From IMG/VR virus record IMGVR_UViG_3300025018_000246, positions 1 through 42,932 of that record: DNA of 42,932 bases. One strand, 5' to 3'. Of this stretch, positions 13,360 through 23,736 are shown piece after piece. The position numbers and the translations under genes are program-made. Within the stretch, counting starts at the first letter, position 1, and the number at the start of each line of letters is the position of its first letter. Below the pieces are notes generated by a model. The model worked only from the letters and a program-made list of their open reading frames with translations, did not search any database and was not told the origin of the DNA. This DNA comes from a virus (Duplodnaviria > Caudoviricetes).

Positions 13360-13551
13360 TTAATCAACTTCTACTATTTGTATGATTGTAGTTATAGAAG
13401 ATACAGTAGGACGCTCTTTATAGTCAAGAATTTTATTCAAAACTTTTTGAGCTTTATCAGCATCTCGTTTCCTATGAATAGTGTCTTCTAAAACTATAGT
13501 TGGTTTAATACCTCGTTTTCTTGCTGTAAACTCTTTGATTGTTTTTGGCAT
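13360..13551 (-). CDS. Hypothetical protein
   Basis: 63-aa basic ORF between the terminase genes. Confidence 0.5.
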   Translation of the reverse strand: MPKTIKEFTARKRGIKPTIVLEDTIHRKRDADKAQKVLNKILDYKERPTVSSITTIIQIVEVD

Positions 13552-14246
13552 GGCTGCTTATCTTCCTGGGGGAGATGTTCTATTGCTCTTTCTTTTCTTC
13601 TTTCAACTTGTTCTAACAATGTGTTTGATTGCATAGTTTGTAAGTCTTGGTCTCCAGCTCTGATAACTTGATTCTCTATATTAGTAGAGAACTGAGTAAT
13701 AATATGAGCAGGCAAAATTAGGTTTACTATATTGTTCTGATTAGTTACTTGATCCGGAGAAGATTGACCTCTGCGCTTAGCTCCATTAATAGTGCTAATA
13801 GCTTTTAATATAGTATCTGGCTTAAACATCAAAGGCATAGCATTTTTTAACTTAGCAAGCAACAGATCTTCTAATTCATCATAACTATTATCTCTAATGT
13901 TATGTTTCTGTAAATGTTCATATCTTCGTTTTGCTACTTTATCACTAAAGTCTTCATTAGATAATAATTGAGAAATATAGCTAGGAGTTACTCCCAAAGC
14001 TAAAGCTACGTTTTCTGAATTAATGCCGCTGCCTAATAAATCTAATGCCCTCTCTTCAGTACTCGATGTTTTGCCCGGCGAATAATGATTAGATTTATCT
14101 TCTACTCCTTTAGTAATCGGAGAAGTTATATTTCCACCTAAATCTTCCACAGAGATATTAGCTATTCTCTCGGGAGCAGCTCTAGTTACTTCTTTCTTTA
14201 GTGACTTTAACAGCTCTGCTGTTCTTTCAGGTGATAAGCTATTCAT
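13494..14246 (-). CDS. Putative terminase small subunit (HTH)
   Basis: HTH-like INSENVALALGVTPSYISQLL; upstream of terL. Start is uncertain (14246-14294). Confidence 0.6.
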   Translation of the reverse strand: MNSLSPERTAELLKSLKKEVTRAAPERIANISVEDLGGNITSPITKGVEDKSNHYSPGKTSSTEERALDLLGSGINSENVALALGVTPSYISQLLSNEDFSDKVAKRRYEHLQKHNIRDNSYDELEDLLLAKLKNAMPLMFKPDTILKAISTINGAKRRGQSSPDQVTNQNNIVNLILPAHIITQFSTNIENQVIRAGDQDLQTMQSNTLLEQVERRKERAIEHLPQEDKQPCQKQSKSLQQENEVLNQL

Positions 14247-14453
14247 ACTTAGTATCATACTATTGCTATATAATAAATGGAATCGGGTAATCAAATATCT
14301 TATGCAAATATTAAGTTGTGAATATGAATAGAATCTAAGATCAATGTTTCTAAAAAAGTTTAGTAAAATTTAAAGCTCTCTTTAGGATAGCAGCTCGATC
14401 ACAACCAAAAAAGGCTCCTGCCCCCCTATCAACTACTAGCTACTAGTCATTAG

Positions 14454-14488
14454 TTTGAATGAGAATGATTAGCATTATTATTATCATT
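14454..14488. promoter_or_regulatory. Fur-box-like hexamer array 1
   Basis: AATGAGAATGATTAGCATT (14458-14476), extended by ATTATTATCATT. One mismatch to the AATGANAATNATTNTCATT Fur consensus. Confidence 0.65.
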
Positions 14489-14535
14489 AGTGTTAGCACT
14501 AGCACTAACATTAATACCTTGCCTAGCATAGTAAG

Positions 14536-14570
14536 AATGATAATGATAATGAGAATGATACTCATTCAAC
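14536..14570. promoter_or_regulatory. Fur-box-like hexamer array 2 (inverted copy of array 1)
   Basis: AATGAT AATGAT AATGAG AATGAT ACTCATT: a GATAAT hexamer array. Confidence 0.65.
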
Positions 14571-14585
14571 GCTGGCGCAGTGCCT

Positions 14586-14658
14586 ATAGTTTTTAACTAT
14601 TAAATATAAGCATTCAATAGATTTAAACTATGGTGCCCCTTTGATAGTCATAAACTAT
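14586..14658. promoter_or_regulatory. Three ATAG-N7-CTAT palindromes (OxyR/LysR-type boxes)
   Basis: Boxes at 14586-14600, 14617-14631 and 14644-14658. Confidence 0.5.
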
Positions 14659-14682
14659 TAAATAACTCATCCCTGGTTATGC

Positions 14683-14734
14683 ACACTATCGGTAACACTA
14701 TCGGTAACATAGTAACAAAAAAGTAACACCTTAC
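14683..14734. repeat. GTAACA repeat cluster (candidate UAS or LacI/GntR-like operators)
   Basis: Tandem ACACTATCGGTA x2; GTAACA at 14692, 14704, 14712 and 14723. Confidence 0.6.
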
Positions 14735-14750
14735 ATTTTATAGGGTTATT

Positions 14751-14763
14751 TAAGTGCTTGATT
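14751..14763 (-). promoter_or_regulatory. IHF binding site
   Basis: Reverse complement AATCAAGCACTTA matches WATCAANNNNTTR exactly; about 25 bp upstream of the sigma54 -24 box. Confidence 0.6.
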
Positions 14764-14787
14764 TTAGCTAGGTTAATAGTTCCGAGT

Positions 14788-14804
14788 TTGGCACGGACAT
14801 TGCA
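14788..14804 (+). promoter_or_regulatory. Sigma54 (RpoN) -24/-12 promoter
   Basis: TTGGCACGGACATTGCA is an exact match to YTGGCACGRNNNTTGCW; 80 bp upstream of the first early gene. Confidence 0.75.
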
Positions 14805-14883
14805 TATATATATGGTAAGGGAATTATCCCTGGTTAACTATTTAGTTATAGTTAATTCAATTAACTTACTTGGAGTAAGACTA

Positions 14884-15552
14884 ATGGAAACTACACCCAA
14901 TTTTGGCGCTTTTGAGCAACTGACACCTACAACTGTACTACCTGAAATTAAAGGGGTACGTATCATTGAATGCCCTACTAAGGGTAAAACAGTAGACGGT
15001 AAGTATGTACCACCTAAGATAGCCAGTAGCTATACATTGATACCAGACTTTATAACCGAAGAAGCTATCAATGAGCGTATGGATGATCTAACTCCCCACT
15101 TCATTGAATACCTTTATTCAGTTGTCCGTGCTGACATACAAGCACAGCACAAGGCGGCAGCTACCAAGATATACACTGAATACCTTGATATGGATAAGGT
15201 AATCGAACTGTTAGAAGCTACTAACACTAGTTCTAGGTTGTCTGGGGAGCAAATTACTGCTTACTTTACTGAGTACTTGGCTGACACTTATCAGGCAATG
15301 TTACTCACTAATGCCGGTGTAGATCATCCTACAGAAGAACAGCTTGCCAAGTTAGAATTGCTTACTAACAAAGCTAGTAAGATGTTTAGTTCTCTGGCGG
15401 GCCCTAACACTATATTGGTGGATGCTGATAAAGAAGCAGCTAAAACTTTGTTAGAGCTAGCAGATGCTAAAGACCACCTGATCGGGCGTAAATTGTTAGC
15501 TAGACTTGAAGCTATGGATAAGAAGAAAGAATCCGTACTCGGGTCTTTGTAA
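14884..15552 (+). CDS. Hypothetical protein, first early gene (222 aa)
   Basis: GGAG RBS before ATG 14884; highly expressed codon bias; has its own terminator. Confidence 0.8.
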   Translation: METTPNFGAFEQLTPTTVLPEIKGVRIIECPTKGKTVDGKYVPPKIASSYTLIPDFITEEAINERMDDLTPHFIEYLYSVVRADIQAQHKAAATKIYTEYLDMDKVIELLEATNTSSRLSGEQITAYFTEYLADTYQAMLLTNAGVDHPTEEQLAKLELLTNKASKMFSSLAGPNTILVDADKEAAKTLLELADAKDHLIGRKLLARLEAMDKKKESVLGSL

Positions 15553-15593: not shown

Positions 15594-15614
15594 GCCCCTT
15601 AATTGGGGCTTTGT
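15594..15614 (+). terminator. Intrinsic terminator
   Basis: GCCCC-ttaatt-GGGGC followed by TTTGT. Confidence 0.6.
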
Positions 15615-15734
15615 GCTGTCTAGGATTTAAGATATTCAGGTTAATTATCATGTATCTTTTGCACCATTCTTTAGTTAACCAGGGTTATTTGAATGCTAAG
15701 TTTCAAGTGATAATAACTAATCTAATATCTAACT

Positions 15735-16092
15735 CTGACATCTTATGCCAGTCTCTGACAGTTTGTGCCAGAATGCCAGAATGCCAGAGCTTTTTTGGGG
15801 TATCTATCTGTGACTGTATTTCTCATGCTATGTAATCTAAGCTATCTAATATACTCTTTATATCTTTATAGGTGTATAGGTATCTTTTATTATCTTTTAA
15901 ATTTAACACACCCCCAAAATACAGTAAGATATACACATAAGGATATAGATATAGATATATAAGTTAGTTACTATCTTAGTGTTACTATAGTAGTTAGATT
16001 ACATAGCTACAGGTTGACATAGTAACAGTAACATAGTGGTTGACATATCAATGGCATTATGGCACTATGGCACACTATGGCACGGGCTGGCA
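15735..16092. other. Putative replication origin: inverted TGGCA iterons flanking an AT-rich core
   Basis: TGCCAG x4 (15746, 15766, 15774, 15782) and TGGCA x5 (16052-16092); 14-bp perfect inverted repeat 15827-15840 / 15994-16007. Confidence 0.5.
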
Positions 16093-16143
16093 CAGTTCGC
16101 TAGCTTAGATTTTAATTAGATTTAACCCACTGGAGATAATACT

Positions 16144-18806: not shown

Positions 18807-19271
18807 ATGAATTCAATATACAAAGCATTATTAGGTGCTAAAGAAAAAGGTATTAAGCACCCCAGAATTAAACTAACAGGGTATTCATTTACATTAGCTC
18901 CAGCTTCTGGATTTAATGCAGGTTGCGTATATGTTAAAAATGATACCACTAAAGCATACTGTGGTAAGATAGATAGTGAGGATAACTTTGAGCTACATTA
19001 TTCTATGGGTAAAGAACTCACAGAAGAAGAAAGGAACTCACTAAATACTTTTATATCTAACTGCATTAATGATCCTCTTGAATACGTCAGGATATATGGA
19101 TATAAAACTGGTAATTGTTCATGCTGTGGTAAGAAACTCAAGAACAAAGAATCTGTTAGATTAGGTATTGGCCCTATCTGTAGAGAAAAATATGGTTGGG
19201 GAAATATAGATATACCTGAAACGATAAATGAAACTAATGAAAACACTATACAACGGAGTTTAGACTTATGA
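18807..19271 (+). CDS. DUF6011-like zinc-binding protein
   Basis: GNCSCCGKKLKNKESVRLGIGPIC. Confidence 0.7.
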   Translation: MNSIYKALLGAKEKGIKHPRIKLTGYSFTLAPASGFNAGCVYVKNDTTKAYCGKIDSEDNFELHYSMGKELTEEERNSLNTFISNCINDPLEYVRIYGYKTGNCSCCGKKLKNKESVRLGIGPICREKYGWGNIDIPETINETNENTIQRSLDL

Positions 19272-19780
19272 GCAATCATCTTAGAAAACAGACTAAAGCT
19301 AGCAGGCATAAGTATCGACCCGTACTAACTGCCTCTCAGATTTCACATATCTTACATTTAGCTAAGAGTGAAATGCCTATAAGTGAGCTATCTTTTGAAG
19401 TGATAGCTAGCCTAGCACCATTTGAAGCTAAGATAAAAACTAAAGCAATTAAGCCAGCTTATGCTGAACCCGACCCAAATAAACCTAAATCCTTTAAAGG
19501 TAAGACTATTACTTTAGAAGATCTTGGCGGTACAAGTTCTACAGCTAATCAAAAGCATGAAGAAAATGAAGGTTTCCTAGCACAAGAAGATTTCCCTACT
19601 AAAGAAGCTTATTGGGAAGCCTGTTATAATAAATATAAAAAGAGTATAGCTTCTTGTAACATATATGAAATAGCTGCCGCTACAGAGCATATGTATCTTA
19701 ATGATCTTATGACCCCAGAACAATTAGCTAAGTTTGAAGAACAAAATATTCAAAACTATGATCCTATAGGTGATTTATAG
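19268..19780 (+). CDS. Hypothetical protein
   Basis: ATGA overlap with the upstream gene; GGAG RBS. Confidence 0.75.
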   Translation: MSNHLRKQTKASRHKYRPVLTASQISHILHLAKSEMPISELSFEVIASLAPFEAKIKTKAIKPAYAEPDPNKPKSFKGKTITLEDLGGTSSTANQKHEENEGFLAQEDFPTKEAYWEACYNKYKKSIASCNIYEIAAATEHMYLNDLMTPEQLAKFEEQNIQNYDPIGDL

Positions 19781-22980: not shown

Positions 22981-23736
22981 ATGAATGACCAAAATGAGCT
23001 ACAAGCACAAGCAGAAGAAGTTAACTCTCAAACAGAGGGAACTGATAACGACGTTAAAACCAAAGTTATTGAAGTTCAAAACCCTACTGCCGAAGAGATG
23101 CAAAATCTTCTAAAAGATGTAAAGGTTAACTATGACTTCGAGGTAGATGTTAAGCCTATGAAGTTTAAGTTTAAAAAGTCTGTGGATAAGGATACTGGTA
23201 TTGAGACTGTACGCAAACCAGTTGAGTTAGCTATCCCAGTCCCTTCTATGGAAGGTCTTGTTAACATTCTGGAACGTGGCGGAAAAGGTTTGGAACTTCT
23301 TATGGAAGTTATCGAGACTACTATTAAAAATAGTGCTCGTGATCTTCTTAATGAAGATGAATCTCTTAACGCTTCTACCTTCCCTGTAGAGAAACTTTCT
23401 TGGGAATATGTTGCTAACTTGCCTAAAGCACAACGTCGTGGTGGCGGTATTGCTAAAGAAACTTGGACTGAGTTTGCTCAGGATTATGTCGAAGTTATGC
23501 CTGCTGTTACTGGTAAGTCTCTTGAGCAAGTTACTAATGCTTCTAAGATTCTTATGGCTAAACTGCAACAAGTTCGTACTAATGAGCCAGTACTGCAACT
23601 GCTTGTTGAACAGCTTGCATTGTATGCTGAGCACTCCCCTAACATTGAAGATTATCAAGAGTGTGTAGACTTCCTGCTCACTAAAGCTAATACTTTCCTC
23701 AATGTGTCTGAAGAAGAGTTGCTTGCTAACCTGTAA
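22981..23736 (+). CDS. Hypothetical, probably highly expressed protein (251 aa)
   Basis: TAAGGA RBS; CGT/GGT/AAC codon bias; own promoter and terminator. Confidence 0.85.
   Translation: MNDQNELQAQAEEVNSQTEGTDNDVKTKVIEVQNPTAEEMQNLLKDVKVNYDFEVDVKPMKFKFKKSVDKDTGIETVRKPVELAIPVPSMEGLVNILERGGKGLELLMEVIETTIKNSARDLLNEDESLNASTFPVEKLSWEYVANLPKAQRRGGGIAKETWTEFAQDYVEVMPAVTGKSLEQVTNASKILMAKLQQVRTNEPVLQLLVEQLALYAEHSPNIEDYQECVDFLLTKANTFLNVSEEELLANL

Follow-up and report, generated by a model that had tools for sequence, protein, structure and literature searches.

Host proteins acting close to the packaging or entry signals of phages are familiar from the control that LexA exerts over packaging genes of prophages and SaPIs, from IHF at lambda cos and from the injection-stop region of T5. 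Phage promoters under host regulation are likewise already known, as exemplified by PhoB promoters (PMC10976474) and by the sigma54-like promoter of phage YuA (PMC10914365), each according to the available text of the source. In the PhoB work, predicted boxes often failed to bind, as stated in the accessible part of that paper (PMC10976474). For bacterial targets of CbrB, the accessible sections of PMC6296734 describe an enhancer (UAS), an IHF site and a sigma54 promoter in this order, together with a GTAACA subsite, and report no single subsite as essential. Activation by Fur and relief from H-NS silencing are assigned, in the available portion of PMC10219339, to extended sites 60-240 bp upstream.

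The locus analysed here combines elements of these systems in the gap between the divergent genes terS and geneX. The window, meaning the whole stretch of DNA analysed, is one complete contig of 42.9 kb (42,932 nucleotides) with a 150-nt overlap between its ends. A single sequencing run contains it in full; that run is labelled aquifer metagenome and is possibly where the contig comes from. Its TerL is 32% identical (over 95%) to that of PaMx41, 119X and PaP2 and 36% identical to that of Aeromonas phage P5, and its gene order is that of PaMx41 (terS, then terL, portal, capsid). Based on this TerL identity and gene order, the virus is classified from its sequence as a distant PaMx41 relative, a Fredfastierviridae-like podovirus; the core genes and gene order common with Jamesmcgillvirus are present. 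In our best explanation, to which we assign a probability of about 0.5, the gap is a divergent control region wired to the state of the host, with a sigma54/enhancer module serving geneX and a Fur slot serving the packaging genes. The array is likely to let the virus read the iron and nutrient state of its host, and this would assist in deciding whether to produce particles or to stay dormant.

The lifestyle of the family bears on this explanation. The initial annotation took the phage to look lytic, which is doubtful given that Shea, a close relative of PaP2 (98.6% ANI), persists episomally and has no predicted lysogeny genes (PMC13348215). PaP2 itself is described as temperate in the available text of PMC3652863, and PaMx41-like phages as lytic in that of bioRxiv 10.1101/2022.03.30.486325; the latter description counts against our explanation. 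No integrase was found in the 4 family virus records checked. For Shea, the long-read assembly of the episome falls 1,799 bp short of that of the virion (PMC13348215). A 43.3-kb family contig (L176) is binned within a Nitrosomonadaceae MAG and may be episomal or mis-binned.

Layout of the region between terS and geneX

The features of the region are collected in Table 1. Direct inspection confirmed the motif blocks of the initial annotation in position and in order, although the blocks span 206 of 361 bp in a region that had been called almost fully covered. Counts in the gap were compared with those in 300 dinucleotide shuffles of positions 14258-14883, using plain consensus sequences of the motifs in place of curated matrices. 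In this comparison, named as a check in the initial annotation, the Fur, ATAG-N7-CTAT, GTAACA and sigma54 motifs all stand above 300/300 shuffles. The Fur 19-mer is found at 7 positions with up to 5 mismatches (shuffle mean 0.08; 0/300 reach 7). There are three ATAG-N7-CTAT units (shuffle mean 0.03; 0/300 reach 3; 4 genome-wide) and four GTAACA repeats (shuffle mean 0.36; 0/300 reach 4), and the -24/-12 match to sigma54, perfect and better than in 300/300 shuffles, is the sole one in the genome at ≤1 mismatch. The proposed IHF site holds as a perfect consensus at the correct position for the promoter, but is weak against the shuffles, 26/300 of which reach its single perfect match in the gap; 4 are present genome-wide.

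Table 1. Features in and around the terS-geneX gap (window coordinates; promoter-relative positions where given).
Feature	Coordinates	Strand	Remarks
terS	13494..14258	-	PHROG terminase match; first gene of leftward packaging/lysis/structure operon
Three-box anchor	14353..14428		box A 14353-14367, box B 14381-14389, box C 14406-14428
Fur-type array 1	14455..14488		anchor-proximal slot; 1 mismatch to family 19-mer at 14458
Inverted repeat TGTTAG-N8-CTAACA	14491..14510		seen directly in sequence
Fur-type array 2	14533..14569		inverted relative to array 1; 1 mismatch to family 19-mer at 14548
Three ATAG-N7-CTAT units	14586..14658		LysR-type
Four GTAACA repeats	14686..14728	+	predicted enhancer (UAS), CbrB R-subsite type; -129 to -87
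IHF consensus site	14751..14763	-	-64 to -52
Sigma54 promoter	14788..14804	+	GG 14790-91, GC 14802-03; predicted start 14815
geneX	14884..15552	+	222 aa; fast-evolving phage family
Terminator-like hairpin	15594..15619	+	past geneX
TGCCA-type inverted repeat arrays around AT-rich core	15740..16095		origin or genome-end candidate

The two Fur-type arrays together form a 34-bp inverted repeat (85%), in agreement with the inverted pair originally proposed. They show the arrangement typical of Fur operators, a 7-1-7 palindrome or 19-bp box with hexamer-spaced overlaps, and two weak 9/12 matches to -35/-10 elements lie beneath array 1. The triple ATAG-N7-CTAT is sound as a motif block, but its assignment to OxyR was not upheld. 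An OxyR site consists of two such units 7 nt apart; the gaps in the window are 16 and 12 nt. Among 369 loci, paired units are present solely in the window's own contig, and single units, in 4/104 relative loci against a shuffle mean of 2.5, are not enriched. The LacI/GntR label was similarly lost: with up to 3 mismatches allowed, the region contains no match to the 14-bp palindrome that serves as GntR/LacI operator. Sites for CRP and FNR are not enriched in the family loci. The TGTTAG repeat was considered as an instance of the family palindrome AGTRAGYRCTYACT and rejected, since the eight best scores of AGTRAGYRCTYACT in the window do not include it.

On the side of geneX, the region has the layout expected of an enhancer-dependent sigma54 promoter, with the GG-N10-GC consensus, a predicted UAS that falls within the usual range of about 80-150 bp upstream, and IHF placed between this predicted enhancer and the promoter. 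Two copies of TATCGGTAACA had been noted; both are present, but they are part of the run of four GTAACA repeats, which start at 14692, 14704, 14712 and 14723. The pairs are 20 and 19 apart, consistent with the CbrB spacing of about 20-25 bp. The forward TGTTAC subsite about 20 nt before the GTAACA repeats is absent in the window, which argues against our explanation; two relatives (L087, L005) carry a block homologous to that of the window with TGTTAC-N14-GTAACA. The sigma54 dependence and the enhancer role are predictions for the window, made from known promoter geometry.

A conserved anchor with exchangeable neighbours

Relatives retrieved with terL have a three-box motif in common just left of the array, here referred to as the anchor. 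A scan with the anchor pattern gave 119 loci; of 134 anchors in a set of 143 sequences, 112 have terS or terL adjoining. A motif-independent search based on terS gave 80 loci, of which 50 have the anchor by the strict pattern and most others show it by eye. The pooled set holds 215 terS loci, 175 with the anchor by pattern and 115 of these non-redundant, and the 40 without it are in part short contigs or cases that the pattern overlooked. One copy of the anchor is present in each of the window, PaMx41 and Tiera genomes. Its A-B spacer is 13 nt in 101/110, its end lies 101-262 nt before the terS ATG in 62/68, and boxes A and B contain one TAnnnT hexamer each on the terS strand. Because the late operon needs a leftward promoter at this place, and the anchor is the sole conserved element noticed, the anchor is likely the late promoter; it is possibly also a pac site.

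The equivalent arrays to be looked for upstream of terS in relatives were indeed found, in the form of host-regulator-type sites and a sigma54/IHF promoter occurring family-wide. Two of the refuting outcomes named in the initial annotation, motif scores at the level of shuffled sequence and lack of conservation among relatives, did not occur. Occupancy of the slot beside the anchor was counted in the first 150 nt past it for 104 non-redundant loci, window included. Textbook Fur boxes (≤2 mismatches) are present in 11/104 against a shuffle mean of 0.3, boxes at ≤3 mismatches in 33/104 against 2.95, and those found by a degenerate motif, chosen after viewing the data, in 37/104 against 0.5. On the terS side of the anchor the count is 0/40. 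When 300 nt past the anchor are considered, 30/75 family loci have Fur, compared to 3/114 past chance anchor matches in cell genomes. The slot region also harbours AGTRAGYRCTYACT palindromes (14/104) and LexA-type boxes (6/104), several of the family motifs having been defined post hoc, after viewing the data. The 46/104 loci with zero listed motifs imply that no single factor is required, a point against our explanation. Overall, AGTRAGYRCTYACT, a 14-bp palindrome that we take to resemble TetR-type sites, has 24 copies in 17 loci (e.g., L054, L064, L312).

Most relatives have a single Fur box (37 matches in 30 loci). Among the 37 loci with the degenerate Fur motif, 21 have the Fur centre at 22-44 nt from box C, and 21 have it 11-33 nt away from where the C-run ends; the distance between Fur and the rightward promoter varies between 51 and 539 nt (16 loci). 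Helical phasing of Fur to the anchor is not seen in the 37 Fur loci, a point against our explanation, and overlap of the Fur box with sigma70-like promoters (2 and 2 of 37) does not exceed the about 4 expected. Strong tandem Fur arrays are found in the window, L136 and L332; the inverted pair was not seen in the relatives inspected. Six Pseudomonas phage records have a Fur-like box beside the anchor that, with 3 mismatches to the 15-mer, falls below the cut-off and is uncounted. A stretch of about 90 bp made up of ATT/ATG/ATC triplets looks like a long Fur array; it lies amid early genes of one relative and away from the anchor (L021, 2690-2780).

The occupant of the slot changes between close relatives. 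Loci L326 and L327 differ in the Fur slot at 99% identity of terS, L035 and L054 have Fur in one and the AGTRAGYRCTYACT palindrome in the other, and the hexamers of L332 and L333 are unequal in number. In a rapidly built terS tree with weak support, the Fur label, present in 27/79 rows, needs 16 changes.

The right module was counted in 74 loci for which the region as far as the first gene is defined. The sigma54 motif is oriented toward geneX in 28/74 and toward terS in 4/74. An IHF site 25-75 nt upstream of sigma54 accompanies 11/28, compared to any IHF site in 2/46 other loci, and enhancer-type clusters (GTAACA, NtrC-type, TGAC/GTCA; motifs chosen post hoc) are present in 16/28 sigma54 loci versus 4/46 others. 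In the anchor-geneX interval of four loci (L022, L069, L326, L327), DnaA-box clusters with NtrC-type and IHF sites come before the sigma54 promoter. The geneX module is inverted and converges on the anchor in L284, L365 and Tiera (L145, 44172-45185). The left and right modules are separable, on few cases, because IHF (L284) or sigma54 (L365) sites have relocated with geneX while the AGTRAGYRCTYACT palindrome of L365 stays near the anchor. L365 is the sole inverted locus keeping a listed motif there; Tiera has none beside the anchor.

The presumed output of the right module, geneX, was found in 55/65 long loci (inverted in 2 of them). It was not found in 4/5 family records tested, three of which were picked for its absence beside the anchor; its absence in these records weighs against our explanation. 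The protein is 15-35% identical to 32 relatives, compared to 32-60% for terS and 56-73% for the gene at 22981, and its family comprises 1,007 clusters at 50% identity. Its structure model is confident (pLDDT 91.6). Matches were absent in Pfam, PHROG, Atlas, Foldseek and VIA (best Z 5.7), and a search with the single sequence returned only geneX itself. A weak alignment with the family of the highly conserved protein encoded at 22981-23736 (173 columns, E 2.8e-4, probability 41%) suggests that geneX may be a distant, fast-evolving paralog of it.

Other elements were noted. The TGCCA-type layout is family-wide, with a repeat sequence that varies among relatives; four Pseudomonas phage records open there, and in the window the right array comes after a TTGACA. 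The idea of geneX as binder of these repeats is weakened by two loci (L266, L091) that have the repeats and no geneX match. A candidate repeat binder or repressor is the conserved KYRP-helix-helix protein at 19268-19780, whose strand residue is V with TGGCA (4 loci) and Y with CAGTCT/CGGTCT (8), a correlation confounded by the loci forming two clades. An RHH fold for this protein is without support, the model being an extended stretch and two helices with no RHH among the matches. The early genes of L266 include two short ones rich in Cys-x-x-Cys repeats, possibly metal-binding.

Proposed control by host state and its rivals

Rightward, a host enhancer protein, likely of CbrB type and active under carbon limitation, would loop via IHF to the sigma54 promoter, and geneX would be turned on only while this protein is active. 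Leftward, iron-bound Fur would sit upstream of the candidate late starts, at a distance of 78-138 nt, and probably act as a barrier to silencing; for either candidate -10 of the anchor, the distance from Fur to the start is within 60-240 bp. A barrier role would explain that the occupants are interchangeable, unphased and apparently off any promoter. Ample iron in the host would favour the packaging genes, and the net effect would be particles in replete hosts and persistence in starved hosts. With less assurance we infer a late promoter in the anchor, activation and not repression by Fur, and a geneX that would favour the carrier state; least secure are the direction in which Fur acts and the part played by geneX. 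The "logic board" of the initial annotation, which tied the first early gene to host iron, peroxide and carbon status, fits best among its models, but the array divides into two modules, sigma54 and Fur.

Relatives would plug other host sensors (NtrC-, LexA- and DnaA-type, or AGTRAGYRCTYACT-type palindromes) into the same slots. Extended to the family, the proposal becomes tentative and is held at clearly less than even odds: a large integrase-less podovirus lineage, mostly uncultured, may outsource the choice between lysis and persistence to the host via plug-in site cassettes. These would occupy an anchor slot (Fur commonest, else LexA-type or other) and an enhancer slot of the sigma54 promoter, filled by CbrB-, NtrC-type or other sites, and would be swapped between near-identical phages to match the host niche.

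The rival that survives best, although rather unlikely in our view, takes the anchor as the packaging cut site, that is, as pac and not promoter, with adjacent sites coating the DNA with any tight-binding host protein, much as in the landing pad of the initial annotation. The coat would limit nuclease run-off, gate cutting or aid entry, and the sigma54 module would be the sole promoter. The single-copy anchor just upstream of terS, with interchangeable and unphased occupants beside it, is well suited to such a role, and the pac site of SPP1 overlaps its late promoters, as given in the available text of PMC6316719. The Tiera record begins inside box B, as it would also after manual rotation; according to its paper, the genome was rearranged after PhageTerm. 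Elsewhere in this record lies a perfect 72-nt tandem duplication, likely an assembly overlap (L145, 43928-44072). Tiera itself, however, has no listed motif in the slot, and the records of PaP2, 119X, PaMx41 and Ph_15, all without terminal repeats, open ≤1 nt apart in the other intergenic region, a shared opening due to biology or convention. Contig ends form no sharp peak among 56 array-side ends (115 loci). Moreover, the occupants of the slot are sites of signal-dependent regulators, and IHF is mainly at the promoter position, both of which count against a coat.

Divergent control by host state could also operate with the opposite sign, which we regard as distinctly unlikely. Fur, LexA and TetR-type repressors would keep the late promoter repressed as long as the carrier cell is healthy and would free it upon iron starvation, peroxide or DNA damage. 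Repression is the usual mode of LexA and TetR-type proteins, which argues against the activation sign, and LexA-type boxes and the AGTRAGYRCTYACT palindromes do occur in the slot region. The Fur centre is near enough to the C-run end to block an activator, and episomal persistence as in Shea would suit repression. The sigma70-like overlap with the Fur box at no more than expectation speaks against it, and the upstream extended arrays match the mode of activation.

Quite improbable is that phage proteins are the ligands of the repeats, or that a hairpin is what the repeats make, their likeness to host sites being convergence of AT-rich repeats. As ssDNA, the window region folds at z = -4.5, and the ATAG-N7-CTAT triple and the TGTTAG repeat are without an assigned partner. 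The hairpin, however, arises from the inverted Fur arrays, and the motifs agree with several host consensus sites that are unrelated to one another, and vary between phages whose terS is 99% identical. A structured RNA was rejected, the window region having no match in Rfam and the hairpin being a by-product of the arrays. Lastly, a decoy that after replication titrates Fur and other regulators (OxyR, in the initial annotation) and de-represses host iron uptake fits poorly and is highly improbable, for although tandem arrays and the Fur-like run in L021 are what it would use, most relatives have one box, tied in position to the anchor when a decoy could sit anywhere, and sigma54, IHF and UAS retain promoter geometry.

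Relation to known systems

We know of no switch for pseudolysogeny, and the locus offers a concrete candidate in cultured models, since both the anchor and a Fur-like box are present in PaMx41, PaP2 and their relatives. If the proposal is true, phage regulatory DNA evolves by exchanging host operator cassettes, the motif set reveals which stresses each phage monitors, and iron and carbon status are tied to virion production, with a bearing on phage behaviour in therapy. As the presumed output, geneX is worth study. In the literature searched, subscription papers being mostly outside its scope, there was no description of a family-wide, swappable multi-regulator array beside an element upstream of terS, in agreement with the initial annotation, which knew of none for the combined array.

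The LexA/SaPI, lambda cos and T5 cases involve a fixed single factor, whereas the occupant here is variable. The cyanophages S-PM2d and P-SSM2 similarly place boxes of a host stress regulator on phage promoters, but the available text of PMC10976474 describes one regulator at scattered genes, unlike several regulators in a swappable array at one locus. Phage YuA likewise has a sigma54-type promoter on a phage; an enhancer/IHF module or a Fur array is not mentioned in the accessible part of PMC10914365. SPP1 pac over PL1/PL2 is, like the anchor, one cis element that lies upstream of terS and may serve as promoter and cut site at once; a host-regulator array is not mentioned in the available portion of PMC6316719, and cutting at the anchor is a candidate function here.

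Among bacterial systems, the Pseudomonas promoters of crcZ, crcY and PP2810 resemble the window in GTAACA, IHF, GG-N10-GC and fitting distances, going by the available sections of PMC6296734. The window differs in being phage-borne, with four reverse subsites and no forward TGTTAC, and its relatives use other enhancer types. The Fur-activated promoters of the E. coli ftnA type have, in the accessible text of PMC10219339, extended arrays 60-240 bp upstream of the start and clear of -35/-10, a placement that the arrays here would share relative to a presumed start; the presumed target in the window is instead a phage late operon, and the slot may hold other regulators. Within Fredfastierviridae, PaMx41, PaP2, 119X and Shea have in common with the window the gene order, the anchor and the Fur-like box beside it; terL is only 32% identical, and in PaMx41 the rightward promoter is of sigma70 type and the array much shorter.
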